In this document: positions 1,675 to 64,000 of the stretch, piece after piece
Numbering within the stretch: position 1 is the first letter of the stretch
Layout: each line of letters begins with the position of its first letter
From: Squalus acanthias
Taxonomy: Eukaryota
Length of the DNA stretch: 64,000 nucleotides
Assembly: GCA_030390025.1 (NCBI GenBank)
Contig: CM059437.1
Coordinates: forward strand, 83,762,001-83,826,000
Direction: 5' to 3'
Translations under genes and position numbers: made by a program
Notes under the pieces: model-generated
Told to the model about the DNA's origin: nothing
Databases searched by the model: none
What the model saw: the letters and a program-made list of their open reading frames with translations, nothing else

Positions 1675-1884
1675 CAGGAATGAAAAGTGAACGAAGCAAA
1701 GGTATTCAACTAACTTTAAAGTTTCTATAAAACACATCTGCGGTTGTTTATGTTTATATATGGGCATTCTCTGCTAAATTGACTTGTAATATTACTTATT
1801 AAGTTAGCATATGGAGAGCATGATAATATGATTTATGCCACCAATTAGAATATGTAGCACAGAGGGGTCGAGAAGATATTTAAG

Positions 1885-2006
1885 AAAACTGTGAATATTG
1901 AAAATCTGAAATAAAAATAGAATATGTTGGAAATATACAGCAGGTTTGGCTGGAACTGAAAAGAGAAAAGACAGGTTAATGTTTTGGATAGGTATCCTTG
2001 GTCAGA
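1885..2006 (-). mobile_element. Degenerate copy of the short hammerhead-motif repeat seen at 16554
   Basis: AAATCTGAAATAAAAATAGAATATGTTGGAAATATACAGCAGGT matches the reverse complement of 16620-16665. Confidence 0.6.
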
Positions 2007-2239
2007 ATTCATTATTTCACTTTATCAAGGAGATGTGTTACTGTCACAGAGGGGAAGTGGTGGGGAGTTAAGGTCCTTAATAAGGTCTGGGAGTATAACA
2101 ACTTGTTACTTTTTCAGGTTCCTTTTACTGTTTTCATTTCTTTGACAGCAATGTTCTCATTATGGAAGGTTTACAGCCTTATATTATTGTACTGGCATTT
2201 ATATCTGTAAAAAAACTATTTTATCATTTTATTTTACCT

Positions 2240-3461: not shown

Positions 3462-4251
3462 ACCCATTGTTTCATTCAGGCATTCCTATTCTCAGTTTCA
3501 ACATCGCTGCTTGTTATTTTCAGATTGGGTTGGAGGAATGGACAGAATGACTTGTGTCTTGCCAGTGTTGAGCTGAAAATAGTTCTGGTTCATCCAGGAC
3601 TTTATGTCTAACAGACAGTCAGATAGTATAGTGACGGTCGTGGAGTCAATGGTTGTCCTGGAGTCGATGGTGATTGCAGAGATGAAGCTTGGGGGTCATC
3701 AGTATAAAAATGGAAATGGATCCCATTCTACAGATAATGTTGCTGAATGGCAGGTAAAGGAGGGGGAACAACAATCTTTGGCATGGCAGAGGTGACTGTG
3801 GACGCAGGAGGAGAAACCATTACTATGCTGGGAAAGGCAGAAACAGAATTCAGATAGGGTGGTTCCAAGGAGATGGCCCACAGAAATGAGAGATGGGAAG
3901 GAGAATGGAATGGTCACCAGTATTGAAGGCTGCAGAGAAGTCGAGGACAGGAGGGTTGAGGTGTTGTAATCACATAGGCTATCAAGATGGTTTTGCTGTT
4001 GTAGTTGGGGGCATGAAGTTGGCAGAGTAGCCACACCACCAGCTTAAAGCCAGCATCTGGAGGCCCAAACCTTTTTCAGGTTAAGGTCTTATCAGCATAA
4101 ATGACAGAGATGGCTTTGCTGTTGGTGAAACTAGACTGAAGGGATTTAAGTAGGGTGTGGTGTGACAGAAGGGTACGATAAGTGTAAATTGTTGTTGCAC
4201 TGTTGAAATAAACCAAAGGACTTCACAGATCTGCATCACAATTCCAACACA

Positions 4252-4850
4252 AGTGTCAGCTTAGCTCAGTTAGTAGCACTCTTGTCTCGAGTCAGAAGGA
4301 TGTGGGTTCAATCTCCACTGCAGATTTGAGAATACAATCTAGTAGTGTGGGACTGTTGCAATCTCAGAGGATGAGACGTTAAATTGTGGATGTAAAAGAT
4401 GCAATGGCATTATTTGAAGTGAGAAGTCGCACAACACCAGGTTATAGTCCAACAGTTTTATTTGAAATCACAAGCTTTCGGAGCGCTGCTTCACCTGACG
4501 TAGGAGCAGCGCTCCGAAAGCTTGTGATTTCAAATAAAACTGTTGGACTATAACCTGGTGTTGTGTGACTTCTCACATTTGTCCACCCCAGTCCAACACC
4601 GGCATCTCCACATCATTATATGAAGTGCCCCTGGTGTCCTGGCCAACATTTCCCTTTTGATCACTGCCATTAAAAAAAGATCAGCTCATCTATTTTGCTG
4701 TTTGTGGAACTTCATTGTGTGCAAGCTGGCTGCTGTGTTTGCCTACACAACAGTGACACCCTTTCAAAAACAATGCATTGGTTGTAAATTACTTTAGAAT
4801 TGGCTCAAGAATGTGATAAAGTGTTCTTTAACTACAAGGTCTTTCTTTCT
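4252..4850 (+). mobile_element. Diverged DeuSINE copy interrupted by a palindromic insertion
   Basis: Head AGTGTCAGCTTAGCTCAGTTAGTAGCACTCTTG...GGGTTCAATCTCC, Deu block GCTGTTTGTGGAACTTCATTGTGTGCAAGCTGGCTGC and tail TCTTTCTTTCTT. Confidence 0.75.
4419..4613 (+). mobile_element. Penelope-like terminal fragment: about 72-bp-arm inverted repeat with a minimal hammerhead motif
   Basis: 4419-4490 is the reverse complement of 4505-4576 with one mismatch. TCAC-CTGACGTA-GGAGC AGC GCTCC-GAAAGCTT-GTGA lies at 4491-4527. Flanked by a 14-bp duplication CATTAT(T/A)TGAAGTG at 4408-4421 and 4614-4627. Confidence 0.7.
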
Positions 4851-5019
4851 TCCCGAATGCTTGTATCATTAGAGAAGGTATGTAGGAGAGGTTCAGCCAT
4901 GGAGGGAGGGGGGGGGGGAGGGCTTTATGGGACAAAAGCACCTAAAGATGAGAGAAGAAGCAAACAACTTGAATGAGATAAATAAGTAAAACCAAGACAA
5001 TTTTGTTTGTAAATATAGT

Positions 5020-5025
5020 TTTATT
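5020..5025 (-). terminator. Candidate distal polyadenylation signal of SMTN
   Basis: Minus-strand AATAAA is followed about 20 nt later by a U/GU-rich tract TTGTCTTGGTTTTACTTATTT. Other candidates are at 8345-8350, 10670-10675 and 10762-10767. Confidence 0.35.
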
Positions 5026-6964
5026 TTGTGCTTTAGTGCATATCTGTATATACTGTGTAAAACAGACGAGTTACAAAATGCATACTGAAATATGTTGACC
5101 GTATTACAATGGTGTAGTGGCCTGAAAAAGACACAACATGCTACACTGAAGGTAAAACCAGGCCTATCCCACACGTACCTCAATGCTAGTGCAAGCAGGA
5201 ATACAGTCATGTTGTGAGCTCTCTTTTTTTTTAAATTAAATGAAGTTATAATCTGAGGGAAAAACTCAAAAGGAGGAAAGAGTTGTGTGTACCTGCTCCA
5301 CAAATTACAAGGGAATTGACTTCAAGTTTTGTATAAGCAGCGTGTGTTTGTGTCACTATGTCCGTGTATACACTGCACCAGTACTGAGTGTAGATTGAGG
5401 GACACTGGTGAGAACTTAAATTGAGCTTATCATCCCCTTAGTAAACCAGCTGGAGTAGTGCAAGCCTGGGTTTTGATGCTGATGATCAACTATCTTAAAT
5501 AAGTTAGTCAGTCCTAAAAAGTTCAAGAGACACCCTGTGTCAGGCAGAAACAGTCTGAAATCAAATCTTCATATAAATGTGTTTGACCAGATCATAAGCA
5601 CTGATTCAATACTGGAGAGTGCGGTGGGTGATAATGTATCTGTATCTAACCCATGTTATACCTGATCTGGGGATGCTCGACGTTACGACCAGTTACAAAA
5701 GATGGAATATGTCCAATCTCCAACATTAACATCCCTCACCTCGATGAGTAAAAAATATTTTAAAATAATGAAAAATCTAAAATATCTTCCTGCTGCGGGT
5801 TTGCCAGGGGCAGTCAAAGTGCCTGTCATCTCAACACACCACCAATGCAGTTCCAAAAAAAATTACTGATTACCCAGCATTACCTAAACAAAGTTTGCTT
5901 GTTTTTGTATTGCTTTATCATCTGTTCAGTTTTCACGGTGTGTTGGGCCGGCCAGAGACAATGGGATATCACAGTTACCTTAAAAGCTGCTGGAGTAGGG
6001 TGACTAACCAAATCCCTGCCTGAGGTGAATGGGTGGGATTAGTGCAGTCAGTGTGCAGGCCTACCTGTAAATTGGACATTTTAGCAGCCAAACAAAATCT
6101 GAAAATATTGGATTAGTGAACAGCTTTTAAGCAAACATTAGCCAGCAGGATTCACTTCATTACAAAACGGAATGATCTATGACCCGAGAACATCGTATAT
6201 CAGGGTGCACTGCGCGTAGTTATATAGTAATACGGCAGTGCATTTGTTTCTTGTACATTTCAATTTGAAGTCTTAGTTTTTCTTTTACAAGACAATGAAG
6301 AACTATTGGTACAAGCTCTAAAATTAATCATGCAGTGGAGCAGGTACTGTACTCATCTTTCAGAACAGTGTATAAATTCGTAGCCAGTTTGTGCATATGC
6401 ACCTCTGTGCCATGGATTTACAAGCTGCTTGCAGAGAGTCAGGGTCTAGAACTCTTTCTCCTTCATACACTCCAGATACATTAGTGACCTCCAGCAGGTC
6501 GTCTTCTTCCTTACAACAACGATTATCCCCCATGTACCGATGAACTAAAATTCATGGTTTCAAAAAGGAGTACCTTTAAATAGTCTCAGCGTCACTAACA
6601 GTAGCACAGGTGTAAGCGATCGATCAGCCAAAACTCATCTGACACCAACGGCAGAGCAGCCTTCAAAACTCACATCCTAAATTTCCAAATTCCCATTTAA
6701 TCTCAGGGTTAATCCCAGTCTCCCTTTCTAACCTGTTCATCACTCTTTATCAGCAGAATGTAACTGTCAATGTCTAGATGTTAAATGGGCATGGTCACCA
6801 CTGAAAAGGCATCAGCAAGGTTATGCCTCTGGTGCAATTATATCATTCAGCAGGACTACAGAAAAAAAAAATTAGAAGTGTTTTCAAAAAGAAATTTATG
6901 GCCCAAGTTCTTGCTGCACTGCAAATATAAAACCAATATAAATTATTTTCAAAGTAGGAGAGAG

Positions 6965-7150
6965 AATTGTAAATCTGAAATATAAACAGAAAATGCACAG
7001 CAGGTCAGTTAGCATCTGAAAGAGAAAGAAAGATAAACTGCAAAGTCACACCTGAACCTATGAAGAATTTACCCAAAATGTTAGCATTTCTGTCTTTGCG
7101 ATGCTAATTAACTTGTGTGTTTCTAGCATTTACTACTTTTATTTCAAAGC
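6965..7150. mobile_element. Old two-armed (inverted) copy of the 16554 repeat family
   Basis: AAATCTGAAATATAAACAGAAAATGC...AGCATCTG is followed by GATGCT...TTTCTAGCATTT...TTTATTTCA in the opposite orientation. Confidence 0.5.
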
Positions 7151-9462
7151 AACTCCCTTAAAAGAGGCAGAGATGGACCTTATATTGGAGAAAGACAATT
7201 GCAGCATCAGTAAGCTAATCATTAAAGGCATTTTTACACTAAGAGTTGGGATCTTGGGATAGCAGCATTTGGAGACCATGTGTGGCAATCACCTTCTATA
7301 AAGTAGGTTGATGCTGCTGCTCCAAATTAAGGCCACTTTTAAATGTGGACCTGTATTTTTGCATATATCTATGATTTTCATGGCTCTGCGTGCCGTTATA
7401 AGCCAACTTTCTTAATTTCCCTAGGGGTTAAACCCTGCAGGCAGATCTCATATCAATTTGAATATAATTTGATTGAGCAGCATCCTGAAATTGAGAAGAG
7501 GCTGGGGCTGCCCTCTTGCATGGTTGTGTCACAATATGCCCATAGCCGGTTAAAATAGACAGAATCTACTCTGACAGCGGGTTACAAAATCCACAGAGAT
7601 CTAGGCAATTTGGATCTACAATGCTGTCAGATTTCTCAAGTTGCATCCTTTACATTCGGGTGAACGGTCAACAGCAGGAGAGCCACGTGTCTGCTGTTGA
7701 TGGTACTCCCTCAAGGTAAAAGCATCTTGAGATAGGGATTAACCCATTACTGCAGGGTGGTTAGCAGATGCCAGATGAGAGAAGGTTGGTCAAAGGCCAA
7801 CAGCTCTTCTTCCCAACGCCAAAGTCTGTTAATAACAACTGGTTTCTAAGCCAAGAATTTCACCACCTCGAGTACAAAGAGGATAATGGATTAAGATGAA
7901 TCCGTATTTCCAAAAACAAATATTAAAACTAATTAAAAAAATTGTAGCAAGTTCAATGCTAACTTTAATAAGAAAACACAGTCCAAGTGAACACTAGAAT
8001 AATATGTACAGACACACACATGCACACGTGGCAGTTTTCTTCATACAGGTTACATATAGAAACATTGCACTTTTTTAAATATAAAATGTGGCACTAAGAG
8101 CTATACTAATACAGTAAATATGCGTGTTGTTTAGAAAGGTCAGTCTGCTCTGCATAGATTATTTAAAAAATAACACACACCCAATATCCTTGGCAGGGAG
8201 TAACACACTGAGCAGTTTTCAAGTACAGTAATTTGAAATTCAGAGTCTGTGGCGTTTGTGCTTGCATGAACAGTGCCAGAGATTTAAACTCTCTGCTTTA
8301 GTGCAGCAGAAATTTTAACTAGTTATTTGAAGTGTATGAGTATATTTATTTGGTTATGATGCTGGTGGTTTACTCTAATTAGTTAAAAGTGATGAATAAT
8401 GAGCACACCACAGTGTATAATTTTCTCTTTTTGTTAATGTAATTGAAAAAGTTGGTTTTTGCTTACCCCCACTTTCATGCCAGCATTAGCAAACCAAGGG
8501 AAATACACTCATGTTTTAAAAACATCACTGTACAACACAATAAATGACTGGTTTACAACATAATATGCTTGTCGTATCTTCAAGCTTATACATTTCTAAA
8601 TCAGTAATTATGGTTAAAGTGAACATCAAAAATGTTCTCAATCTCTCTCTCTTCGGGGTTGGGGGGGGGGGTTAGGATTTTGTGTGTTTCAAAGTGATAC
8701 ACAGATTAATGTTTTGGGTGTACCCTTTGTCAGAACTCTTTCAACGCTGACTGATACATAATCAGCGCCTACTGTTTTTATTTCCATTTTGCAGTATTTG
8801 CAGTTCTTTTTTTATCTTTTGAAGAAAATATATTTCTTCAATTGAATGTAATCTTCCTTCTTCATAACAGACCTGAAAAGACTCTCAACCAAAATACCCG
8901 GCCTGTTATAAGTTTCAACAGTAACTAAAAACCCATATTTGTTGAGTATATTTTTCAAAGTAATTTGTCGTTATCTCTCCTGGTGGTTCTCAACCATATT
9001 TAAACAGAGTTAAAATAAAGAGCAATGTTTTACTCTGCAGATGAAGCACTGCAGTAGTGGCTGCAGTACCATAAGATGTAGCACAGTTCTTAATTGTTCT
9101 GGTTTAGTCAGGATGTTCGGTTATTAAATAGCAGCAGCAGGGTGCAGGACTTCCAAGCCAGCAAAATCAGCCGATTTGCTTGTTCTACAGCAAATCATTC
9201 TCCCACCTCAAGCACTAACCTTTCAATATATTACACCTTCAGAACAGAGTTAGAAGTCTTTATATTTTCCAATATGCACTGGCAGTAGACGAGGTTCCCC
9301 ACTGCCAGCTTGTACTCATCACTAGCCTAGTAGTGGTGTCTGCCACCAAGTTGGTAAGAGCTGATCTGCAGGCTCCACCAGATCAAAGGACAGTAATGTG
9401 GAGAGGAGTTCTCTGTGCTTTTTCTTCAAGAATAGAGCCAGAGAAACAGTGAAAAAAGATAA

Positions 9463-12845: not shown

Positions 12846-12849
12846 CCAT

Positions 12850-14005
12850 TTCAAGGCCAATATATCTTTCCTGAGATACGGTGCCCAAAACTGAACACAG
12901 TACTCCAGATGGGGTCTGACCAAGACTCTGTACAACTGAAGCAGCACTTCATTTTTTATTTCCAATCTCCTTGAGAAAAAGGCCCAACATTTCATTAGCC
13001 TTTATGATTAAATTTTGTACCTGTGCACTAGCTTTCAATGATTTGTATACATGGACACCTAAATCCCTTTGCTCCTCCACAGTTCCTAGTCTCTTGCCAT
13101 TAAGTAACTATTTTGATTTGTCCTTCTCAAATCCAAAGTGGATGACTTCACACTTCCCCACATCGAACTCCATTTGCCATAGTTTTGCCCACTCATGTAG
13201 TCTGTTTATGTCCTTTGTAGCTTCTTCCTCCCATCCACACAACTTAATGTGCCTCCTAACTTAGTGTCATCTGCAAACATAGATAAACACTCCCTATTCC
13301 TTCATACAAGTCATTAATATATATGGTGGAAAGCTGAGGTCCCAGTACAGATCTCTGGGGAACACCGCATGTCACCTCAATCAGAGAATGAACCCTTTAT
13401 CCCTACTCACTGTTTCCCAACAAACCCATATCGCAAGGTTACCTCCAATTCCATGTGCTCCCATTTTTGCTAATAATCTCTTGTGCGGAACCTTATCAAA
13501 TGCCTTCTGGAAGTCCGTATCGACAACAACAACAACTTGCATTGTTGTAAATTGTACAACGTTTACAATTTACATAGTAAAACATCCCAAGGCGCTTGAC
13601 AGGAACGATTATCTAACAAAATTAACACCGAGCCACATAAGGAGATATCAGGACTGGTGACAAAAAGCTTAGCCACAGAGGTAGGTTTTAAGGAGCATTT
13701 TAAAGGAGAGAGAGGTAGAGAGGTTTAGGGAGGGAATTCCAGAGTTTAGAGTCCAGGCAACATGCATATATACTATCCACCATGCTAGTGACCTTCTCAA
13801 AAAAAATCAACTAGATTAGTCAGACATGACCTACCTTCACGAATCCATGCTGACTCTCTGATCAACTGATACCTGTCCAAGCGCTCAGTCAATCTGTCTC
13901 TGATAATAGATTTCAGTAACTTCCCCACAATTAATGTTAAGCTGACAGGTCTGTAGTTACCTGGTTTCTCTCTCCCTCCCTTCTTAAATAATAGTGACAT
14001 TTGCA
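12850..14005 (-). mobile_element. Decayed CR1 LINE fragment with a nested L2 3' tail (about 13521-13760)
   Basis: Minus ORF LFKKGGREKPGNYRPVSLT...GRSCLTNLVDFF; antisense CR1 RT sequence at 12850-13520; a CAACAACAACTTGCATT tail insertion. Confidence 0.8.
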
Positions 14006-15474
14006 ATTTGCCCCGTACTGTCCTAAAATGGCAAACAAGGTCCTATGTACATCAGAGGACCCCAATTTGCATATTTAAAGGGAGAACCGCCTGACGCAGA
14101 CGGGCACAGTAGGCTTGGGGGAGGATTGCAGTGGCCACAGCAAAGGTGGTAACCATTTTTGGGGTGCTACCGCCCCATCTCCACCAGGCGAGAGGCCTCA
14201 AAATTTCCCCCCCATGCTTCCGGTCAGTCTCCACTGGCACAACTTTAAAAGTAAAAATTAGCAGAAAAACTGAAATGGATCAGTATTTTAAAATATGATG
14301 AACAAGGCATGTCACAGAAAGGCACAGTGTCACACCACCAATCATCCATGTTAAGCTGTACAACTCTGGGAAGGTTGTGTGTGGAATACTCACTTGACTG
14401 TGGTTGGTGCTTAATACTGAACATCAAAGAATCAAAAAAAGTGGGGAATAAAGTTGTCTAAAAACATTAAAATGCCTTAAAAAGTCTAATTTTCAAACAA
14501 AAAGGGAAAACAAATAAAAAGCCTTTTTACAACCATGGACTATTTTATTTTAAAAGTGTGGATGGAGATGCACGCTCAACTTTAGATGTATCACAGCCTC
14601 GATATTTCCAATTGAGCACTGAGCATGTGATGTAAAAATCAAACTTATCATTAAGTATGTGCATACTTTCCACTTTACCATGTAACCTTGATAAACCAAA
14701 TACTCACTCCATAAACTGGTTTCTAATGACAAACATTTTTACTTATGACGTAAATGTTTACATTTTTAGCGCTACTTCCATAATCACGGGGAGGGAAAGG
14801 CAGTTGTAGAGAGCTTTTTCCCCTCTTTAGTACTTACCATGCAACACCCCATCCCCTAGTTTACAGGGTAAATTACTTGTTCCCAGACCTCTGCTGATAG
14901 CACTCTGCAAATGGGCACTGGGAGACACACGAGAGGCAAATCCTGGCACAGACTCCAATGGCCAGTACTCTCTTTGTTGATACTCCTCTATCTGCCCCTC
15001 CCAATTTTACATCGCATGCTCAGTGCTTATGAGATGAGGAATATGGCATAAAACTTTAAGGGTGTACATGGAAAAAAAATGATCCCAAAACCAAAATATA
15101 ATAAAAACAGAATACTGAACTCCGCAGTTTATTTTTTAATACATTGTATATGAATTTTTTTAAATAATTAGTTGTGCAGAATAGGGTTCATTATATAGTC
15201 TAAAATAGATTTATGTTGGGGTTTTTTTAAAAAAGGAGCAATTAACAGCAACGGTAAAACTAGTTGGAATTTTATAAAAGTTCTCAAAACATTATCAAAA
15301 AGCTGTCACCAATTGTAAAATTAGGGTTCAAATGAGTATCTTATACATTTTGAATTGAATTACAACCAGTTCATCTATGTTTCCCACACACACACTAACA
15401 TGAAATACCACTGTCCAGACAAAAGGAAGTAGATAGCCTGATAAACTAAAAGCATTTACTGGAGATAGAAAGAA

Positions 15475-15592
15475 AACCATGAATGCTGGAAATCTGAAAA
15501 AAATCCCAGAAAATATTAGAAATGCAAAGCAGAACAGTCAGCATCTGAAAAAGAAAGAAATTTTTATGTTTTGAGTAGACTTTTCATCAGAA
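15475..15592 (-). mobile_element. Degenerate hammerhead-motif repeat copy, sense to SMTN
   Basis: Minus strand reads TTCTGATGAAAAGTCTACTCAAAAC...CAGATGCTGAC...TTCAGATTTCCAGCATTC. CTGATGA is retained and the GAAAC core is lost. Confidence 0.6.
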
Positions 15593-16074
15593 TTAGCCAG
15601 CATACGTCCTGCACAGGACATAATGGAAAAGAAGAAAGAGAAGGAGGTAAGTTTAAAAATCAAAGAACCCGCCTTTTCTCATTCAAGGTGCATTCAAACT
15701 ACATTGATGCTGCAATTATATATATACAGCCTGAATCCAGATACAGGACCGATCTGACACTGGAACAGAGTGGGATTCCTTGGAACAGTGAGCAACAGTC
15801 TGCTTCACTTCAGTGTTAGTTCGGACCATGACATTCAATTTACACTCCATACATTTAACATTGGTGTGAAACCAAAACTGAAATGTCTCTGCACCAATAC
15901 TGAACTTGCAGTGTGAATGCACCATTACATGTTAGCTGGGCTCAATGGCTTTGCATTTTCTGTTTATATTCAACTTAACTATAATTTTGTACTGTTGATG
16001 AGTTTCATGGGCCAATCTCATTTTTGTAATGCTCCAGGAATATTAGAGTTTTATACCTTCCATATCTAACTATG

Positions 16075-16500: not shown

Positions 16501-16553
16501 TTTAATTACTGTATCTTTTCAGAAAGTTTGAAGTACTACAAACAATTATCTAG

Positions 16554-16690
16554 CCGTTCTGATGAAAGGTCATCGACCTGAAACGTTAACTCTGTTTCTC
16601 TCTTCACAAATGCTGCCTGACCTGCTGAGTATCTCCAGCATTTTCTGTTTGTATTTCAGATTTCCAGCATCTGCAGTATTTTCTTTTTGT
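16554..16690 (+). mobile_element. 137-bp non-autonomous (Penelope-associated) retroelement with a 5' minimal hammerhead ribozyme motif
   Basis: Perfect 14-bp TSD AAACAATTATCTAG at 16540-16553 and 16691-16704. GTT-CTGATGA-A-AGGTC ATC GACCT-GAAACGTT-AAC at 16556-16590. Confidence 0.75.
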
Positions 16691-17971
16691 AAACAATTAT
16701 CTAGTCTGATTACAATAGGGAGACACATGTTGTAACACTGTCTTGCTTCCTCCGAGAATAAGTTCAAGCTCAGATGACAGAGACGACTGAAAGTTTTCCC
16801 ATTGGTCACTCTATGTAAAGGCTGTTTAATGCCACGAAATTCATTTGGAAAATGTCGACAATATTACACTAGGCACAGTTCCAAATTTTTAAAGAATTGT
16901 CCTTGTGATGAGAATTAATTAATGTTTTCCTGACAATCTATCTTTAAGAGGATACAAGGATACAGAGAATGGAAAGGTCACACTGCTGTGCTTTTGAAGC
17001 TGGAGTAAAAGGAAAATTACTGATCGAAGACTACAAAGGTTGCCATTTTTATTTACTATTTTATTATTCCGGAATGATAAAATATTAGAACAATTTCCCT
17101 CCCTAATATTTGTACCCTCTCAATGAGCATGGTGATCACATTCTAGTACCTCACTCAAGTGATCATTCTTGTGCCTGAGCTCGGCGGCGAGTTTTCATGG
17201 CTATTCAACTGTGGAAGGGCATCACAGCCAAGCCCAATCCTCTTCCCACGTGATGTCCACATACATGCATTTTTCAACATGCGTCACTGGATCAGCTAAC
17301 TATATAAAAGGCAAGCTCTTTTTCTTTAATAGATCAGGATCAAACCTGGGCTTTATCTGGCCTGCGTGACGCAGTACCACAATGGGCAATGGAATTATCA
17401 ACGGAGTCACTGGGACACACACATACATTCTTTGTTTTATCAAAGTTTGGTAATACAATTTAATGCACATCAGCAATGCCCACCTAGTAATAACCATTTA
17501 AAATTCTTTAAAATGACTTTAAGATGTCCCCATATAGATGCTCATCAGTTTTCTCAGTTAGCTAAGTAATTTTTTATGTGAAATACTTCATAAACTGCAA
17601 GTAGGTAAATGACAGATTACTGGCAACAGACTCGGATTAAGAGCTCAAACTCCAGAATAATTAATATCTACCATTTCATTAGCACCATGAAGGGAAAATG
17701 GATTCCAGATACAAAACACTGTGGTGAATTTATCTACATTTCCTGCAATCAAAGTCAGTTTAAGTAAAGAAATGCCAGACCAACTGATATTTCTGTCCAA
17801 CATGCACTACTTTTAATGCATTCAGTTTTCCTGATTACCTGGACAAATCGTGTTCAGTATAAGTGAGGCATGCAGCATTCTAATGAAATCTGTGGCCATT
17901 TCACTATATACTGAACTGAAAAGGAGCAGAAACAGCAGGAGCATTTCCTTGCAGGATTCAGCGCTTATTGC

Positions 17972-18083: not shown

Positions 18084-20769
18084 ACTGCTTTGAACAATGT
18101 ACAACAAACATGACTTTAGTCACTAGTTGACCAGATAAATATGGTTAGCCTGGATGCTCCCGCTACAATTCAATACCAAAGGCATTATTGAAGGGATATT
18201 AGTGTACCATTTACTGAACTCCTGAACCTTGCTCAAACTTGGAAGCTTCCAAATTTTGAAAAGATACAATCAGTTGCTACAGGTCCAAATTTGAAAACAT
18301 TAAAAACTTTTTACGCCTAGTTTTAGACAAGTTCTTGCAGGATATAATTTTATTCAATGCAGCCTCCTGTGTGATCTGAAACATATTGGAATTTTCAGTT
18401 GTGAAAATGGCACTTGTGGGAGCTGATGAATTTACTTTCAGTATATCCATTATATGTCAGGATTTTGGAGATCGTACAAGAGCTATGTTCAGACGGGACA
18501 CAATGCCACAATAAAAAGGCCATATTTGGTAGTAAATTGAGCTAACGTAAATAAAAAAGATGTTTGTTTGCAAAACACTTACACATAATCATCATGGAAA
18601 CCTTCTAACGCGAATGTAATAATAATGAACAAAAATCTGAAGCTGTACTTGCAAGAAATAACCCAGCGCTTGCCAGGAAATTTACAATGTTTTGCTGTCA
18701 ATTTTGTGTTTGCATTCCTTTCAATGGGATGAACCACAGCTGGTTTTACAAAACACTGGTAGGGAATGATTGAATGAATTAGTGAATGAATTAGGCATAA
18801 AATAAAACAGAATTAGGCTAATTTAATTCTAAAACATGTGAATCTTTTATTAAAAAAACTAACTTCAAACAGATGGAAAATACTGAAAATACACAGCAGA
18901 ACCATTTGAAAGAAAAATGTGGACAGACTTGCATTCTATTTCCAACATTTTTGATTCTTAATCAGATATCCAGTATTCACTGATTTATTTTCACCTCTAT
19001 CAGTAAAAATTCTAGATTGTGTTAAATCACTCCAATTTCCTAGATCTAGAAAGGGAAAATGAAGAGAAAAATGATCTAACTATTTTATTATAAAAATCAG
19101 TATGCCCTAACATGCTTTTCCAGTCTGTCATACTTGTATCACACACAACTTTCTGTCACAATTCAAAGAAAACCATAAAGAAGCAAAGTAGCTATCCAGG
19201 AACACAAAATACTCGAGCCAAAAGGTCAGCAGTCTTTTAATTAACATCTGTGTGAACTTGATGGTATTATTTAACCATTTAATAAACCTCTGTGAACCCA
19301 GTGGTAACTTAACAGCAGTTAGATTTTGTAATCTAAAAGGGACAAACACCTACATTTACATGGTATAGTATTCCTGACCCTATAAAACAGCTCATTAACT
19401 GACTTACCATGAACAGCACTAAAAAAGATTTGCTGGTACTTCTATAAATAAGTCTAGTGTCCATTGCATATGTCACAAATTTTTACAGGTGTAAGCTTAA
19501 AAATAAAGAAAGCTAGTTAATTCCTACTGGTTTTCCTGACCTTCCAACCTGGCCTTTCCCCCGAGTGCAGGAACTGCGGATTTACAAGCAGCTGCCAATA
19601 TACAGAAAATTCCTTCAGCCTCCAGTTGATCTGAGGATATTCACATTTCGAACAATTTACCATAGGGAGTATCCGAGTACTGGCCTACTGGGTCAGGCCA
19701 AGTTAAATACAGCTGCATATTAGCAGCTAAGCATCATAATCACGTTCCAGATGCTAGAGTTCCCATAAGCTACACTACAGAGGATCAACTAATGTATATA
19801 TTTTCTTCCCTATCTCGCCTGAAGATGTAGAATTATGCTGGCGTACGGTTCCACTGACCATCCTGAAATTTCTCACCCAAATAACCATTCATGTGTAAGT
19901 TCCAGCAAATCAGTTGCCCATTGGGACACCACTGCCATTACCCAATCCCATGCCCACCCAATGTGCATATGTGGACACTTTCCAGTAGGGGTTACGAGAT
20001 AACTACTAGGAAGACCAACTCTCACTAACTTTCCCCTTCCTACACCAGGGAGACCAACTGTAGCACCCCATCTGCCATCCTGACTAAGATCAGCTAATTG
20101 GGCACAGAGGATCAAACCTGGGATGTATGACTCAGTTTCATACTATTCAGCAAATTTATTGGGGTAGAAATTCAATTGCGTTTCACCCAGTTTTCAGGCG
20201 CTAAAACGGCGTTCTGCATACCAATTTTGCGGTCCTGCGCCGGAAGTGCACATGAAATGTAACCACCACCATATTGACTAAGGCGCTCCTTAGGCATCCC
20301 TGGCAGCCGCCTGAAATGAATGGTGGGCTCACTAAAATATTTAAATAGGGCTCCTGTGCTTTTATTAGGACCCTTTTGGGAAATTGGTGCTTGGAAGCAT
20401 TTGATTTGATCATTCTTAAGCCTGCCCAGAAAAACATGGCGCAAACATTCAGAAATCAGGCTGAAGCCGCGCCATTTATAGGGATCCCCGCCTCCATTAA
20501 GGTGGTGAGCAACCTCGAGCAGCTCTAACTGTTGAGGACCCAGCTGCAGACTGCTGTGCCTCAACATCAGCCGGGGCAGTCTGGGTCAGCTGGCCATGTG
20601 GAACCAACAATGGCACTGGGTCAGAAGCTGGCAGGGAAGCAGACGTCCTGTCATCCTGAGAGAGAGGACAGCATGCACCTCTCCTATGGAGCCAAGGGCC
20701 ACGGTCATGTGGTTACCCCTCTACCCTCTCACAACTCTGCATGAGAACAAAGTGAAGGAGCGTAGTGAT

Positions 20770-23814: not shown

Positions 23815-24299
23815 TTTTTCCCTATTTATTCTATCAAAACCGTTCATAATTTTAAAAGCCTCTATTAAATCTTTTCTAAGACTTTGCTCCTCATTCCTGG
23901 TATCATCTTGTACACTGTATATTCTCTGGATTTAATGTCCTTTCTATAATAGAGTGCCCTAAACTGCAGACAATATTATAAATAGGGCCTAACCAATGCC
24001 TGGTACAAATTTAATGGGCTGGATTTTGTCTTGGGGTCGGGTTGGGGTCGTGTAATCCGCATTTCGTGTTTCCCCCCCGACTCCAGATTAATGTGGGTGC
24101 CTGATGCAATTTTCACTTAATTGGGCAATTGAGTTGGCGCATGTGGGAACCCATGAACTAATTACTGTTTTCAGACTGAAAGTCGCCTCTGATGATGTCA
24201 TCATTGCTGACTGCCTAGTCTCAGAGACTGTTGATGAGAGAGGACCTGCCTGGCTTTTGATGTGAGTGGACCTGGATGGGGGGGGGGGAAAAGGAGAGA

Positions 24300-24382
<83 letters not shown>

Positions 24383-25385
24383 TTTTTGCAACCAAGTCCT
24401 CCCAGGCAGTCTCTGAAGACATTCAATGCAGCAGCATCAGAGGCGACGTTCAGACCTAATACTACTACTACCTTCATCACATCTCCGTTGTAATAGTGGA
24501 CCTGCAGCCGATAGTCAGCTATCCACTTGTGCTCCCGCCAGGTTTCACTGGAGTGTTTCACACCAGGCGTGCTTCACGTCAGAAGAAGGTTAAACTAGCT
24601 ACAGCGTTTCAAAATGGCATTACAGAGCCAATTTAGAGCTTGTTAAGGGCTTTAATGGCCTCTCCCGCCTCTTGAAGGCGGGACGGAGTCGGGAACCCCG
24701 CGACTGATTCTGTCAAAATTGCGTGGAGGCGGGATGGTGTCGGAAACCCCGACCCCGCAAATTTAACCCCCCACACGCCTCCAAACCCGACTCCATGGGT
24801 CATTCAAAATCCAGCCCATTATCTCTTTACTCTTGTACTCTATGCCCCTATTTATAAAACCCAAAATGCTACTGGCCTTTTTCACAGCTTTATCAATCTA
24901 CACTCGTACCTTCATGGAATTATGTATTTGAACCCCAAGGTCGCTCCATTAATCTACCCCCTTCAGCATCCTTCCTTTCAGCCGCTACTGCAATTCATTG
25001 TTTTTCTTCCCAAAATGCATTATCTCAAACTTCTCCCACCGGTCTACACATTCCTCTAAACTATGTCCTCGTGAAGTCTTTCACAGACCTCTTCACTGTT
25101 GTGTTGTCAGCAAAGTTTAATATTGTACTTCTTGTGCCCAAGTTCAAATCATATATATCTATCTACCTCTGGAATGAAAGTGGACCCAGCACTGACACCT
25201 GGGATACTCCACTTCCATCTTTTCTCCAGTACAGACAAAGCCCATTAATTCTAACCACGTGTTTCCTGCCTGTCAACCAACTTCCTATCCATGCTACTAC
25301 ATTTGCTCTTGTACCAGAAGTCTGCATTTATGTAACAGAAGTCTGAATTTTTGTGAGGCACCTTATCAAATGCCTTCTGAAATGC
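23815..25385 (-). mobile_element. Old CR1 fragment split by a MITE
   Basis: Antisense CR1 RT-like blocks (GGCCTAACCAATGCC, GGACCCAGCACTGACACCTGGG, CACCTTATCAAATGCCTTCTGAAA) lie on both sides of 24016-24817. Confidence 0.6.
24016..24817. mobile_element. PIF/Harbinger-type MITE, copy 1, with an expanded (GA)n at about 24293-24379
   Basis: TIR GGGCTGGATTTT / AAAATCCAGCCC; near-identical to 28444-29183 over most of its length. Confidence 0.85.
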
Positions 25386-28443: not shown

Positions 28444-29183
28444 GGGCTGGATTTTGATACTGGGGCGGGTTGGGGTCGTGTCATCCGCATTTCGTGTTAT
28501 CCACCCGACTGGAATTGGATGTGGGAGATTGATGCAATTTTCACCTAATTGGGCAATTGAGTTCCAGCATGTGGGAACCCATGAACCAATTAGTGGTTTC
28601 AGTCTGAAAGTCGCCTCTGATGATGTCATCATTGCTGCTGCATTGCAGGTCAGAGACTGCCTGACCTTTGCTGTGAGAGGACCTGGATGCAAAATGAGCA
28701 GCGAGAGAGAGAGGGAGAGGGATTTTTTTTTGCATCCAGGTCCTCTCACAGCAAGGCCAGGCAGTCTCTGAAGACATTCAATGCAGCAGCATCAGAGGCG
28801 ACTTTCAGACCTAATACTACTACTACCTTCATCACATCTCCGTTGTAATAGTGGACCTGCAGCTGATAGTCAGCTATCCACTTGTGCTCCCGCCAGGTTT
28901 CACTGGCGTGTTTCACATCAGGCGTGCTTCACGTCGGAAAAGGGTTAAACTAGCTAAAACGTTTCAAAATGGCATTACAGAGCCAATTTAGGGCTTGTTA
29001 AGGGCTTTAATGGCCTCTCCCGCCTCTTGGAGGCGGGATGGAGTCGGGAACACCGCGACCGATTTTGTCAAAATTGCGTGGAGGCGGAATGGAGTCGGGA
29101 TCAGGTCCGCCCGCCACTTTTCGCTATTTTAACCCCCCACACGCCTCCAAACCCGACTCCATGGGTCATTGAAAATTCAGCCC
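28444..29183. mobile_element. PIF/Harbinger-type MITE, copy 2, with an internal about 200-bp palindrome
   Basis: TIR GGGCTGGATTTT / AAAATTCAGCCC with TAA/CAA flanks; homologous to copy 1. Confidence 0.85.
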
Positions 29184-36513: not shown

Positions 36514-37269
36514 TTAAAACAATTACATATTTGATATTTCCCCCAGTCACGGTTACTGAGGGAAAATTGTGCCGACAAAGACTTCAACACACACACAATT
36601 TAGTTGTGGGTCCTAAAAAAAATTCAAAAGTCCCTTTACTCTAGTTGCTATGTAGAGTGGCAATGTAAGCAATTTTCTCTGGTTGGCATTTCTAGTGAGA
36701 TCGTGAATGTGCTCAAAAATACTGACCAGAGGACATCTTCCCACATTTCTTTACAGTGTACCTATACAAAAGTGTAGATTTTCCTCTGTACCAGGGATTC
36801 GGTCAGAAGTGCAGGACTTCCACCCTCCCATTTCCCCGACGGATCTTCTTTAGTAAGTGAGCTCCCGGTGGCATTTCCGCTGGGTTGTCCATTTCATATG
36901 TGGGGCGGGGGGGGGGGGGAAGTCACAACATGGCGGTGGTACCTGCCAGCAGTGCCTGCTGCAGGGGGAAAAAAACCTCCAAATTAGGCAAATGGCCCGT
37001 TAATTTTTAAATAGCCTTTCCGCTGCTTTATCAATGCTGGATGCATTAATGCAGAGAAATACATCAAACAGCTGAATGGCTCACTGCTGCATTTTATGCT
37101 CCCTCACATCCTGAAACTACCTCAAAATAGGCAGAAGACAAGAGACAACCTGGGCCAATTGTGACCAGAGGAAATTATTTCCTCATTTATAGCCAAGTGT
37201 GAATAAATTTGAATTGTTTAAAATTTGGGGATCTGAAAAATTGGAATCCAAATCTGGATCTGAATCTGG

Positions 37270-38225
37270 GATGTGATGTTCCCCAGGGATCTATTCTGAG
37301 GCCTCAACCTTTCACCATATTTATTATGAACATGGATGAAGTAATAGAGAGTTGTATATCCAAGTTTGCAGATGGCACTAAGTTAAGAGGGGCAGTAAGT
37401 AGTGCAGATGGGAGCAGGAAGTTGCGAAGGGACATAGACAGATTAAATGAGTGGGTAAAACTATCGCAAATAGAGTTCAATGTGAGGTCATCTACTTTGG
37501 GCCCAGGAATGATAAATCTTTTTAATGGTGAGAATCTAAGTACTATGGAGGAGCAAAAAGATTTGGGAGTCCAAGTACACAAATCATTAAAAGCCAGTAG
37601 ACAGATACAAAAAGCAATCAAAAAGGCTACTGGAATGTTGGCATTTATATCAAGAGCCCTGGAAAACAAAGGGGAGGAATTTATGCTTCAGTTGTATAGA
37701 GCCCTGGTCAGACCCCATCTGGAGTACTGCATTCAGTTGTGCACCGTACTTCAGGAAGGATATATTGGCCATGGGAGGGGGGGGGCAGCGCAGGTTCACC
37801 AGAATGATACCGGAGCTTAGAGGGTTAAATTATGAGTATAGGTTGCATAAATTTGACTTGTATTCCCTTCAGTATAGGAGATTGAGGGGGTGATCTAATC
37901 GAGGTATTTAAAATGTTAAAAGGATTTGATAGAGTAGATATGGAGAAACTATTTCCTCTGGTGAGGCAATCAAGAACAAGGGGACATAATCTTAAAATTA
38001 GAGCTAGGCCATTCAGAAGCAAAATCAAGAAGCATGTTTTCATACTAAGGGTAGTAGAAATTTGGAACTTTCTCCCCCCAAAAGGCTGCGGTTGCTAGGA
38101 CAATTGGAGCTTTCAAGACCAAGATAGATAAGGTCAAGAGATGTGGAGCAAAGGCGGAAAAATGAAGTTTAGATGCAGATTGGGCAGAGCAGGCCCAAGG
38201 GGATGAATGACCTACTCCTACTCGT
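37270..38225 (+). mobile_element. Decayed CR1 LINE 3' portion
   Basis: ORFs show [30 protein letters not shown] and RTRGHNLKI with frameshifts; CR1 tail GAATGACCTACTCCT. Confidence 0.88.
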
Positions 38226-38368: not shown

Positions 38369-39440
38369 GGAACGGTAGCATAGTGGTTATGTTACTGGAC
38401 TAGTAACCCAGAGGCCTGGACTAATGATCCAGAGACAAGAGTTCAAATCTTACAACGGCAGCTGGGGAATTTAAATTCAGTTAATTAAATAAATCTGGAA
38501 TAAAAAGATAGGGCTGGATTTTGAATCTGGGGTCGCGTTGGGGTCGTGAATCACACATTCTGGCTTGTAAACCCGCCTCCATCGAGATGTGGCCAACCCA
38601 CTGTATTTTCCCTTGATTGACCTTGTTAAGCCCGCCCAGTGGGCTCAGCAGGCCAATTAAGGGCCACCCGGCAACAGGTGACGTCACAGATTGACATTTC
38701 ATCTGTCAAGAGCTTTTGACAGATGAAATATCAGCATTTGACAGCTCTGTGAAGTTGTCAAACACTGACAATATGATTTCTAACTTCAGTCCTTCCTCTC
38801 AGGCTGAGTTAGAAATCATTCCAGCACAGAAAACAGAAGGCTGCAGTTTTTGACAGAACCACGGCTTTCCTGCTTTCTGTGCCGGTGAGATTTTTAACTC
38901 CCGAGAACTGAAGGGCTGACATCTGCAGGAGGAAGTTAAGGTAAGTAAAACTTTTTCCCACACTTAGCACTTACCTTACACACTTACCTCTGCACACATG
39001 CACCCATCACTCACCTGCCCACCGGACATATCGACCCCTCCAACCCCTGTAGACTCACGGTCCGCCCCGATAACTTGGCGTGGTAGCCACCTGTCGGGAA
39101 GCCCACATTTCACCTGTCAAAATAGGGATTATGCAAAAACCTGCCTGTTAACTACCTGTTAACAGGCAGTTAACTGCCACTAATCCCTTCCCGCCTCGGG
39201 GAGTCGGGTCTCAGCACAGGTCGGGTACGCGCCGCCAGCGAAACTGGCATGGAGGCGGGTTTGAGGCGGGATGGGGTCGGGACCCCCGAATCTGCAACTT
39301 TAACCCCCCCCCCCCGCCTCCAAACCCGACTCCACGGGTCATTGAAAATCCAGCCCATAGTATCAATAATGGTGACCATGAAACTATCTGATTGTCGTAA
39401 AAACTCATCTGGTTCACTAATGTCCTTTAAGGAAGGAAAT
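38369..39440 (+). mobile_element. tRNA-derived SINE 5' part (38369-38510 and 39357-39440), interrupted by a MITE
   Basis: A box TAGCATAGTGGT and B box GAGTTCAAATC; the body resumes after the MITE at ATAGTATCAATAATGGTGACCATGAAAC. Confidence 0.65.
38511..39356. mobile_element. PIF/Harbinger-type MITE, copy 3 (related subfamily)
   Basis: TIR GGGCTGGATTTT / AAAATCCAGCCC with an exact ATA 3-bp TSD; internal hairpin ATTTCATCTGTCAA/TTGACAGATGAAAT. Confidence 0.88.
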
Positions 39441-41098
39441 TTTGCAACCATCTTCAACCAGAAGTACCGAGTGGATGATCCATATCGGCCTCCTCCTGTG
39501 GACCCAGCATCGCAGAAGCCAGTCTTCAGCCAATTCGATTCACTCCACATGATATCAAGAAACGGCTGAGCGCACTAGATACAGCAAAGGCTATCGTGCT
39601 GAAGACTTGTGCTCCAGAACTAATCGCGCCTCTGGCCAAGGTGTCCCAGTACAGCTACAACAATGGCATCTGTCCGACAATGTGGAAACTGCCCAGGTAT
39701 GTCCTGTCCACAAAAGGCAGGTCAAATCCAATCCGGTGATTTACTGCCCCATCAGTCCACTCTCAATCATCAGCAAAGTGATGGAAGGTGTCGTCGATAG
39801 TGCTATCAAGGGGCACTTACTCACCAATAACATGCTCACTGATGTTCAGTTTGGGTTCCGCCAGGACCATTCGGCTGCAGACCTCATTACAGCCTTGGTC
39901 CAAACATGGACAAAAGAGCTGAATTCCAGAGGTGAGGTGAGAGTGATTGCCCTCGACATCATTTTGACACAGTGTGACATCAAGGAGCCCTAGTAAAATT
40001 GAAGTCAATGGGAATCAGGGGGAAAACTCTCCACTGGCTGGGTCATACCTAGCACAAAGGAAGATGGTTGTGGTTATTGGAGGTCAATCATCACAGCCCC
40101 CAGACATCGCTGCAGGAGTTCCTCAGCGCAGTGTCCTAAGCCCAACCATTTTCAGCTGCTTCATCAATGACCTTCCCTCCATCATAAGGTCAGAACTGGG
40201 GATGTTCGCTGGTGATTGCACAGTGTTCAGTTTCATTCGCAACTCCTTAGATAGTGAAGCAGTCCATACCCGCATGCAGCAAGACCTGGACGACATTCAG
40301 GCTTGGGCTGATAAGTGGCAAGTAACATTCGTGCCACACAAGTGCCAGGCAATGACTATCTCCAAAAAGCGAGGGTCTAACCACCGCCCCTTGACATTCA
40401 ACGGCATTACCATCACCGTATCCCCCATCATCAACATCCTGGGGGTCACCATTGGCTAGAAACTTAACTGGTCCAGCCACATAAATACAGTGGCCACAAG
40501 AGCAGGTCAGAGGCTGGGTATTCTGCGGAGAGTGTCTAACCTCCTGACTCCCCAAAGCCTTTCCACCATCTATAAAGGCACAAGTCGGGAGTGTGATGGA
40601 ATACTCTCCACTTGCCTGGATGAGTGCAGCTCCAACAACACTCAAGAAGCGCAACACCAAAGCAGCCCACTTGATTGGCACCCCATCCACCACCCAACAT
40701 TCACTCCCTCCACCACCGGCGTACCATGGCTGCAGTGTGTACCATCTACAAGATGCACTGCAGCAACTCGCCAAGGCTTCTTCGACAGCACCTCCCAAAC
40801 CTGCGACCTCTACCACCTAGAAGGACAAGGGCAGCAGGTGCATGGGAACACCATCACCTGCAAGTTCCCCTCCAAGTTACACAACATTCTGACTTGGAAA
40901 TATATCGCCGATCCTTCATCGTCGCTGGGTCAAAATCCTGGAACTCCCTCCCTAACAGCACTGTGGGATACCTTCACCACACAGACTGCAGCGGTTCAAG
41001 AAGGCGGCTCACCACCACCTTCTCAAGGGCAATTAGGGATGGGCAATAAATGCTGGCACTGCCAATGACGCCCACATCCCAGGAACAAATAAAAAAAA
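39441..41098 (+). mobile_element. Decayed non-LTR retrotransposon (CR1/L2 group) RT region and 3' tail
   Basis: ORFs show YCPISPLSIISKVME, QFGFRQDHS, GVPQRSVLSPTIFSCFINDL and FAGDCT; tail GGGCAATTAGGGATGGGCAATAAATGC...A-rich end. Confidence 0.88.
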
Positions 41099-60711: not shown

Positions 60712-62999
60712 AATGTAAAGGGGGGAGGGGAGAAAAATAAATATTATGCCAAAAGAAAGAGCATTTAGCACCCATTTGTAACATTTAGCTTTTTGTAGTA
60801 GTTTATTTAAATTGTTATTCATTAATGCCCTGCTGTTTTATGTTCCTCCATTTTTTGCTCTGATTATCTTCTCCTACCTCTCCTTAAAGTGGAGATAAGA
60901 GTTTCATGGTTTCCTAACTCTAATTCTTTCATATGGTAACTTAGAAAATAAGTGTACACTGGCTATTTGACTGTGGAAGGTGGTGACCAAAAATGTACTT
61001 TTTGATTTAAATTCTTTATGGCTAGAATCAGCACAAGGGCCAAATCCCACAGGCACACAGGGCATTTCTCAACAGAAAGGTTCAGATACCAGAAATGCTG
61101 GTTACTTGTTACCAAGAAAAGCATAATGGGCTGTCCAAGGTGTTAGTTGACCAGAGTCATCACGTTCAATCACAAGCATCCTTGCCACTGTCAAAAGATT
61201 GGATTGAAGTGAAATCTTCTGTGGATTGCTGCTGATTTAATGTATTATGGGAGATGCAGTTGTTTATTGCCTTTTGTTTCAGTATAACTTCAAAAGGAGT
61301 TTGCATCATATTTTTGTGAGTAAGCTTGCCTGAGAAAGGCAATCAGTCTTCAGCTTTCCAGCCAGAGAAGAGGTGTGTGTTTGAGTTCTGCATCAACAAA
61401 CAGAGGAGCTTGGTCAGTTAGAGGCTGTGGAATGTTGCAGTGTAAAGACTGTGTCTATATTTCAAAGTTGATGTTTAGAGGGAATTTAAGTGGTGTCGTT
61501 ATTATTTTATGTTTCGAGGAGAAGAGAGAAATGTATGATTAATTGTTTTATACTGTTTACTGTTCATTTAAAAGCCTTATGTAAACAAAACCACTTGTTG
61601 GTTCAGAGCTTCAATCTCAGTCTAGTAAGAGTGTATATTTGGCCCATTTTTCAAAGAAAGGAGAATCAAGTGGTGGAATGTGACATTTTCAGTCGTTCTG
61701 GCGTACAGTGTAATGATTCTCTGTTATGATCTTTGGGCCTCACTATCGTTTACCTAGACATTGGGCAGAAAAAGATTATAGGAAATGTGAGTGGTCAATG
61801 ATGGTGAATCCAAGAAAATATCTATGTAAAAACCCAAAAAACATGTCAAAGACTATCAGAGTTGAGCCTGGCCCATTGTCACTGCATCCATATATGCACT
61901 TTCCAGTATGAGTTGACGTCACAGTAGTTAGGAATGGAAATTGAGGGATTTTTCTTATTCCTATCCAAGAGATACTGAAGCCAATTCCAACTCCCTCACC
62001 CAAATTGTGAAAAAAAAAATGTACTTGTGGAACGACTATGTGGCACAATAGCTACAGTAGAGTTCTACTGCCAACTCACTAAAAAGCCATTAGTATGACT
62101 TACAGTGAGCGTCAGTAGGTTATTTAACTGAAGAAACAACACAGCCGAGTTTGATCTCGTCCTTCCCAACAACAATAACATGAACTTTCCAGCAGGAGTC
62201 ACTGGATAGCTAATGAGAGTGGAATTTCTGTCTGATTTTGCTCCTTACCCACCCAGGAAATGTTGAGGTCAATTGTTGCATTCCAGCTACATTCTGGCTG
62301 TGAAAAGCTAAATAGGCACAGATCAAGAATGGAACCTTCTTGTGTGTCCGGCTCATGACTGTTGAACCTTTCAGATGAGTACACACTAGCATCTATTTGC
62401 TCCTGAACCAAATTTTAAGTAAAAGATTACATTACTGTGAGTTTTAAGCAACTAATGTGTCTACATGTTGAATACTGTGGTGCCTCACTGTGCTGACTCA
62501 AATCTCCTGAGAGGAAACTAAAGATTATGTGTGTGTGGCCTGAAAAATAAGTGTTATATGGCAAAGAAGATAGATAAGAATTTAACTAATAAAAGCATGA
62601 ACAGTACTCAATGTTTAGACATGCAGGAGCATAACAATAATTATTCATCAAAAGATGACATCATAAAGAAATGAGATTGGGTTATATTTTGTACCGAGTA
62701 TAATAGGCACAATGATCAGACAGAAATCTCCCATTGACTTCATAGTTTCTAATCAAATCAACAGGTTTTGATGAAAATAAAATTTAAAAAACAATTTTAA
62801 AAATAGAAAGCAGTAGGATGTGGTTTTGCTCCCATTGTTCCTTGCACACACACAAGTTCCTAATCTTATCAGAGCCACTGGGGAAAACCCAAGCATTTCT
62901 CTACAGGAGGAAGGAAAATCAGAGATAGGATATTACTCCAGGCACTTCCCAGCAATTACGAGAAGCCCACATAGGAGCAGCATAAGGGAGACTCTGAAG

Positions 63000-64000
63000 C
63001 ATAGAAACATAGGAGATAGGAGCAGGAGTAGGCCATTCGGCCCCTTGAGCCTGCTCCGCCATTCAATGCGATCATGGCTGATCATCCAAATTTAGTACCC
63101 TGTCCCTGCTTTCTCCCCATATCCCTTTAGCCTTAAGAAATATATCTAACTACTTCTTGAATATATTTAATGAATTGGCCTCAACTGCCTTCTGTGGTAG
63201 AGAATTCCACAGGTTCACCACTCTCTGGGTGAAGAAATTCCTCCTCATCTCAGTCCTAAATGGCTTACCCCTTATCCTTAGACTGTGACCTCTGGTTCTG
63301 GACTCCACCATCGGGAACATCCTTCCTGCATCTAGTCTGTCTAGTCCTGTTAGAATTTTATAAGTTTCAATGAGATCCCTCTCATTCTTCTAAACTCTAG
63401 CGAATATAAGCCTAATCGACCCAATCTCTCTTCATACGTCATTCCTGCCATCCCAGGTATCAGTCTGGTGAATCTTCGCTGCACTCCCTCCATGGCAAGA
63501 ACATCCTTTCTCAGATAAGGCGACCAAAACTGCACACAATACTCAAGGTGTGGTCTCACCAAGGCCCTGTACAACTGCAGCAAGACATCCTTGCTCCTGT
63601 ACTCGAATCCTCTCGCTATGAAGGCCAACATACCATTTGCCTTCTTAACCGCCTGCTGCACCTGCATGCTTAGCTTCAGCGACTGGTGCACAAGGACACC
63701 CAGGTCTCGTTGCACTTCCCCTTTTCCCAATCTATTGCCGTTCAGATAATAATCTGTCTTCCTGTTTTTGCCACCAAAGTGGATAACTTCGCAATTATCC
63801 ACATTATACTGCATCTGCCCAATCACCCAACCTGTCCAAATCATACTGGAGTTTCTCTGCATCTTCCTCGCAGCACACACGCCCACCCAGCTTTGTGTCG
63901 TCTGCAAACTTGGAGATATTACATCTAGTTCCCTCGTCTAGATCATTAATATATATTGTGAATAGCTGGGGTCCTAGCACTGATCCCTGCGGTACCCCAC
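63000..64000 (-). mobile_element. CR1 LINE 3' portion, same family as 160-1158, running off the window end
   Basis: Minus ORF 63350-63907 is nearly identical in protein to ORF 146-1066, with frameshifts; tail CATAGAAACATAGG. Confidence 0.95.

Follow-up and report, generated by a model that had tools for sequence, protein, structure and literature searches.

The locus considered here raises the question of whether a 137-bp insertion headed by a hammerhead ribozyme motif is a small mobile element in its own right or a piece of something larger, and of what fixed its two ends. It lies in a 64,000-nt stretch of the Squalus acanthias genome (GCA_030390025.1, contig CM059437.1, positions 83,762,001 to 83,826,000, forward strand), referred to below as the window; plain coordinates are window positions. 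A sequence-only reading had taken it for a tiny non-autonomous, ribozyme-bearing retroelement. The features of the insertion are as follows:

16540..16553 (+), left target-site duplication (TSD), 14 bp, exact repeat of AAACAATTATCTAG
16554..16690 (+), inserted unit, 137 bp, the pLTR-plus-tail terminal segment of a Penelope-like element (PLE)
16554..16558 (+), 5' edge CCGTT, at a hot spot of 5' breakpoints; predicted transcription start and 5' strand of helix I
16559..16590 (+), minimal type I hammerhead, predicted cut after 16587 (from sequence, descriptor match, and between-family covariation)
16654..16690 (+), optional tail of ~35 bp, between the family's two 3' ends
16691..16704 (+), right TSD, 14 bp, exact repeat of AAACAATTATCTAG

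The insertion and its hammerhead motif

The duplication is perfect, as originally described, with AAACAATTATCTAG found exactly at 16540-16553 and 16691-16704 around the 137-bp unit. TSDs at sister insertions are 10-18 bp long, mostly 12-16 bp. A contig from another organism (run X24) joins 16518 to 16721; all of 16519-16720 is absent from it, the insertion together with 51 bp of the target region, so that it does not represent a clean empty site. The flanks were covered in this run only, the three others having no coverage there. No PLE coding body is found within the 64-kb window. The insertion is confirmed as real: it is a retrotransposition product, a TSD-flanked copy of an abundant PLE's terminal repeat. 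Short copies of this kind, running from the 5' edge to the tail, are called stubs here; the one in the window is likely dead, because it has neither an upstream TATA-like box nor an ORF.

A minimal type I hammerhead of the Penelope kind had been proposed at the head of the unit, and its core boxes are in place and found by a relaxed descriptor. Read from the 5' end, GTT (16556-58) is followed by CTGATGA (16559-65), an extra A (16566), a 5-bp helix II (AGGTC/GACCT, 16567-71/16575-79), GAA (16580-82), ACGT (16583-86), U17 (16587), and AAC (16588-90). The core elements CUGANGA, GAA, A15.1, U16.1, and H17 are all present, and the predicted cut after 16587 agrees with hammerhead numbering. The relaxed descriptor gave one match in the window, the motif at 16559..16590, whereas 50 dinucleotide shuffles gave 0.0 on average; with helix I of at least 3 bp it gave 20 matches across evenly spaced genome samples totalling 600 kb, and none in any of 10 shuffles. 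Two details of the earlier description need adjustment. The 3-bp stem I (GTT/AAC) is present here, but as a remnant at the insertion edge of what is AGTT/AACT in the family (77/100). Likewise AACGTT, described as a loopless stem III, is a palindrome, but the helix III of a dimer would be ACGT, the longer word taking in core residues A14 and U17. The Rfam scan (E<=5), which is uninformative for minimal forms, gave no hammerhead match, and MFE folding of monomer or dimer, not decisive for minimal motifs, did not yield the hammerhead fold. As weak evidence, the predicted dimer of the window copy is a long duplex rather than two cores. Dimer cleavage has reportedly been described by Lunse et al.

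Several features count against activity of the window copy: U at position 17, the 3-bp helix I, the lack of a second hammerhead motif in the window as a partner, and an A-U pair at 10.1-11.1 in place of the G10.1-C11.1 described as highly conserved in PMC4209133. As a solitary monomer whose helix I is cut short, it would probably not cleave where it sits; the published minimal hammerheads (min-HHRs) are described there as not cleaving as monomers and cleaving weakly as dimers (PMC4209133). The motif is, from its sequence, best explained as a passenger in this copy. Among 100 cores of the same family (family 1), helix II is AGGTC/GACCT in 44 and GGGTC/GACCT in 39, and position 17 is U in 95 and C in five. 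Several of the youngest copies (L057 and L059 among them) have C at position 17 and most others U; the cleavage triplet therefore differs between subfamilies.

Covariation of the helices was examined by comparison with a second PLE family (family 2), first detected by an open descriptor. Its helices are YYAC/GTRA (I) and GGRGC/GCTCC (II) with the palindrome AGCT, where family 1 has AGTT/AACT, RGGTC/GACCT, and ACGT; the core and the extra A are kept while all three helices differ. There is, then, compensatory change in helices I, II, and III, between two lineages only and with search patterns that fixed the palindromes of both families and helix II of family 2. The 10.1-11.1 pair is G-C in 30/30 family 2 copies, but the search pattern demanded it. 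Exact family 2 cores number 48,820 genome-wide vs. 0 in the control, and PLE-like coding sequence lies upstream on the same strand at 7/30 loci. In the family 2 copies L310-L339, 3' ends fall ~80 and 123 nt from C3, and head-to-head inversions are frequent at the ribozyme 5' edge.

The parent element

The 30 closest genomic matches to the unit include 20 that extend 5' into a shared element and nine that have an inverted arm; the remaining one is the window copy itself. The shared extensions are from 199 to >1635 bp long, the longer ones with RT and GIY-YIG reading frames, and represent 16 independent insertions, because five of the loci have common flanks. These five (L017 and L025-L028) are a single insertion found repeatedly, through either segmental duplication or assembly redundancy. 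The inverted arms, head-to-head at nine of the 30 closest loci and at 12/30 in the 3'-end query set, in some cases carry the ~35-bp tail and in others do not. One copy (L036) is a complete pLTR-ORF-pLTR with a broken ORF, its 5' repeat beginning at unit position 13; the 137-bp unit is 97% identical to both of its repeats, and identical to three long copies at 131-132 of 135 nt. In tandems the last bases of the unit lead directly into the ORF region, and the unit is therefore a pLTR plus tail.

No intact ORF of the window copy's own subfamily was found in 16 stretches. A protein search of the genome gave 119 scored matches, nine with a 1004-aa open frame, all of these in a sister subfamily whose repeat is 90% identical to the 137-bp unit. 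The sister subfamily occurs as tandems with a 3.2-kb period, 99.9-100% identical (L057-L064, L066, L071); from its sequences it appears to be very young and is probably still mobile. In L057-L064 (e.g., G000:C4:15717500-15727400), where the 1004-aa ORFs are intact, there is an in-frame ATG within the hammerhead core. An autonomous Penelope with the same terminus, which the earlier reading had suggested looking for, is represented both by L036 and by this sister subfamily.

The 1004-aa product matches Pfam RVT_1 (E 2.6e-5, residues 527-654) and, C-terminal to the RT, GIY-YIG (E 6.6e-4, residues 906-942), both with scores below the curated cut-offs. Its homologues at E<=1e-30 number 1,648 among 7,981 scored, PF00078 being present in most of those listed and PF01541 in some; among named proteins, the closest to the parent's is from Chiloscyllium (72% identity). 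A CX4CX2C linker, CTRRRCNTC, precedes the GIY-YIG region in the sister subfamily protein P0001. According to the available text of PMC8557442, a CX2-5CxxC linker in this position marks the Neptune and Nematis clades, and judged by this motif the parent's linker is of Neptune/Nematis type. The parent shows the hallmarks of EN+ PLEs, namely an RT plus GIY-YIG ORF, partial pLTR tandems, an adjacent inverted truncated copy, and an optional tail, and on these sequence features the unit represents the pLTR end of a PLE with an endonuclease. Contigs guessed to be RNA cover the parent element, although as contigs they give no ends, strand, or level, and no run in which the element was found is recorded as RNA. 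Another arrangement is seen at L251-L253 (G000:C1:6.99-7.13 Mb), where larger duplicated blocks contain repeats of a 635-bp PLE 3' fragment, spaced ~1.68 kb apart, which form a tandem with several hammerheads in one orientation.

Abundance and subfamilies of the stubs

The exact core pattern of family 1 has 56,393 matches in the 3.7-Gb genome, vs. two for a reversed control. Sixty evenly spaced 10-kb stretches contain 46 BLAST matches to the unit, inverted arms counted apart, which scales up to ~3 x 10^5 fragments. Start-site stubs bear the diagnostic bases of several long subfamilies (four diagnostic sites, no tree), the type of the youngest subfamily being commonest among them (14/50). Continuation into the ORF was seen in none of 50 start-site entries (49 loci) and none of 100 position-sampled cores. 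The idea of a tiny non-autonomous element in its own right is not supported by these comparisons: the 137 bp are the terminal segment of an autonomous element, and the stubs mirror several of its long subfamilies.

The two ends

The 5' ends of stubs are sharp at (C)AGTT, 4-6 nt before the core, and not at the predicted cut. The breakpoint pattern RR|AGTT-core has 1,292 matches genome-wide, compared with control breakpoints of 89 five nt upstream, 73 inside the ribozyme, and 93 downstream; 29,220 copies run on upstream of AGTT. The count of 1,292 is partly inflated, because AGAGTT matches include inversions favoured by helix-I microhomology. An adjacent inverted arm is present at 11 of 30 inspected AGTT breakpoint loci, some of them joined by this microhomology. 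Of the 100 intact cores that come first by position, 20 begin no more than 7 nt from C3 (14 bare and six inverted) and five more within the next ~30 nt; seven of the 14 bare starts have a TSD ending <=8 nt from C3, and upstream sequence is not common to the start-site cores. The window copy begins CCGTT where the family form is CCAGTT, either by untemplated addition or as a variant of its source (compare L112 and L114). Breakpoints at the predicted cut site are also above the controls (233 matches vs. 73-93). Ribozyme-defined 5' ends were considered and rejected, with ~5 of 20 cut-site loci bare, the rest deletions, a substitution, duplications, and inversion junctions, and no clear excess.

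Among 75 extended copies, which are related by descent and belong to only a few subfamilies, the sequence at the hot spot is YCAGTTC in 67, and a TAAA, TATA, or TTAT word is found at -28 to -31 in at least 69. The initiator consensus is YYANWYY, which we take YCAGTTC to fit. Family 2 has TATATA 30 nt before TC-A-CTTC, and several inversions begin at that A. The TATA-like box ~30 nt upstream and the initiator-like sequence suggest that the AGTT edge is a transcription start.

The 3' ends of 100 copies are bimodal, with 45 in bins 100-109 and 33 in bins 135-149. The two ends are ~35 nt apart (unit positions ~100-103 and 135-137) and so have the tail signature of PLEs as given in the available parts of PMC8557442 and PMC11167929. 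By analogy with the anole element PAc in vitro (PMC11167929), they may be RT start sites.

Origin of the stubs

We consider it fairly probable that a stub is a cDNA primed internally from the first pLTR of an uncut transcript, running off at the predicted RNA 5' end. A tandem element would be transcribed from its upstream pLTR, starting at AGTT; the GIY-YIG domain would cut the target with a 14-nt stagger; and cDNA would be primed internally at either of the two tail sites, as for PAc in vitro. Priming in the far pLTR would give long copies, variably truncated, while priming in the first pLTR would lead to run-off at the 5' end after ~100 or 137 nt, leaving a stub. Since the predicted cut lies within the stub, the template RNA would have been uncut or re-ligated. 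The more general proposal is that shark-type PLEs routinely insert such "strong-stop" cDNAs of ~100 or 137 nt, from an internal RT start site back to the cap, and toward this we incline only slightly.

The same edge could be produced by structure in the template, if RT, having primed at the 3' pLTR on a long transcript, tended to fall off or fold back on reaching the base of helix I. Truncation at the 5' end is general to the family (extensions of 199 to >1635 bp), the arms of helix I are complementary, several inversions are joined via AGTT/AACT microhomology, and inverted arms too tend to finish at this edge. A structural stop is nonetheless rather unlikely, since the break lies just beyond the structure and not within it (73 matches at the inside position), and coincides with TATA/initiator spacing in two families in which the offset from C3 differs (-4 and -7). 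That the stubs are solo repeats, formed when full pLTR-ORF-pLTR insertions from the start site lost their middles by direct-repeat recombination, is improbable. L036 is a full element with its 5' repeat near the edge (unit position 13), and recombination or deletion is invoked in the available text of PMC3846280 for solo pLTRs without TSDs; yet none of the 50 start-site entries or 100 position-sampled cores enters the ORF, even though the youngest type is the commonest stub (14/50).

A separate non-autonomous element, with a 137-bp master transcribed and amplified alone in the manner of a retrozyme or SINE, would fit the two ends common to thousands of stubs and the roughly one-fifth of intact cores that begin at the edge, and non-autonomous pLTR derivatives exist, according to the accessible part of bioRxiv 10.64898/2026.07.22.740005. 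It is highly improbable here: the stub types parallel the long-copy types, there is no upstream TATA-like box in the stub, no tandem array of the unit was found in the window or among the sampled copies, and the first 44 nt of the unit are matched exactly at only nine genomic places, with bare, inverted, and extended copies mixed. Hardly any credence can be given to the 5' edge as a splice site, with the stubs as copies of spliced RNA halting at exon 1. A polypyrimidine tract and CAG lie directly 5' of TTCTGA, TTTTTCCAG|TT is readable also as a splice acceptor, and in D. virilis the 5' end of helix I is where an intron ends (PMC4209133, available portion), but there is no shared or host exon between TSD and unit, and no joint with GT..AG ends occurs at the edge among the matches listed (15 of 52 joints).

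Run-off of internally primed cDNA thus remains the preferred reading. The window copy is one likely dead stub among ~10^5 relatives, and the useful part is the family pattern, a modest mechanistic lead. PLE mobilisation is poorly understood, with one active protein studied in vitro (PMC11167929). Stubs with fixed ends offer a genomic read-out of predicted transcription and reverse-transcription starts, and their ends argue against the ribozyme setting the template end. If they are indeed strong-stop products, TSD-flanked stubs, in thousands per genome, would give base-resolution maps of the TATA/initiator promoter and of both priming sites in two independent families, and the hammerhead would be uncut before copying in vivo. 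The intact, very young ORF copies in the same genome are material for testing this model of origin.

Comparison with known elements

An EN+ PLE terminus with a min-HHR is an already described kind, of which the window copy is an ordinary member. In the available portion of Cervera and De la Pena (2014; PMC4209133), the min-HHRs of metazoan PLE pLTRs are of the same type I without a helix III loop, with palindromic 15.2-16.2, an extra nucleotide between 9 and 10.1, and a short helix I; they too occur as thousands of single motifs, there ascribed to truncated PLEs. The shark family differs in having A-U or G-U at 10.1-11.1 where G-C is usual, a 5-bp helix II, and mostly U at position 17. The 56,393 and 48,820 exact cores in shark compare with 4,000-9,000 in coelacanth and Xenopus (PMC4209133), counts made with different descriptors. 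No shark term was found in two supplements of that paper.

PAc, the Poseidon element of Anolis carolinensis (Frangieh et al., 2024; PMC11167929, available in part), is alike in having a hammerhead where pLTR and ORF meet, a 30-40-nt tail bounded by two 3' ends, and a template that is not ribozyme-cut; its ribozyme required its protein and was dispensable for insertion. Unlike PAc, the shark element has the Neptune/Nematis-type CX4CX2C linker, and genomic start-site-to-tail stubs are not described as a class in the available text on PAc. Partial tandems, an adjacent inverted truncated copy, a one-sided tail, and TSDs are shared with other EN+ PLEs (PMC8557442, PMC3846280, accessible parts). In these the transcript begins in the upstream pLTR (also PMC2377424, likewise partial), as it would in the shark element, and TATA and initiator-like motifs are noted in rotifer pLTRs (PMC8557442, PMC3846280). 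The D. virilis Penelope promoter is given as internal and of TATA-less type (PMC2377424), whereas the shark element has a TATA-like box. Solo pLTRs in Adineta are without TSDs and are ascribed to recombination or deletion (PMC3846280), in contrast to the TSD-flanked shark stubs with their sharp start.

Animal non-LTR retrozymes, as presented in the accessible part of bioRxiv 10.64898/2026.07.22.740005, are likewise short, non-coding, hammerhead-bearing, derived from PLE pLTRs, and dispersed as monomers. They are defined there by tandem hammerhead units, whereas the window copy is a monomer matching an autonomous terminus; a retrozyme identity was considered and set aside, the insertion being a single copy with no tandem array found. 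No description of TSD-flanked start-site stubs as a class was found in the open literature searched, and the family may already be listed in Repbase, Dfam, subscription journals, or the bioRxiv supplements.

Relatives and other repeats in the window

Five older relatives of the unit had been listed for the window. Three stand (~1885, ~6965, and ~15475; BLAST matches at 1882-2007, 6968-7036, and 15469-15592, E<=9e-9), the candidate at 8730 is weak (nhmmer E 0.07-0.12), and that at 18870 lacks support (E 0.18, no match with the family profile). The three are:

1882..2008 (-), old decayed relative, 72% identical
6968..7146, old decayed head-to-head pair, 6968-7036 (-) and 7071-7146 (+), E 9e-9 and 1e-3
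15469..15596 (-), old decayed relative, 69% identical

At 24016-24817, 28444-29183, and 39249-39356 lie related, non-coding repeats that contain GA tracts and inverted internal arms; they are the source of sub-threshold, miRNA-like Rfam matches. LINE-like RT fragments, which we take to be CR1/L2-like, lie on both strands at 164-1160, 12849-13366, 37203-37817, 39968-41065, and 62998-63998. A near-perfect 72-bp inverted repeat with a 14-nt spacer occupies 4419-4576.
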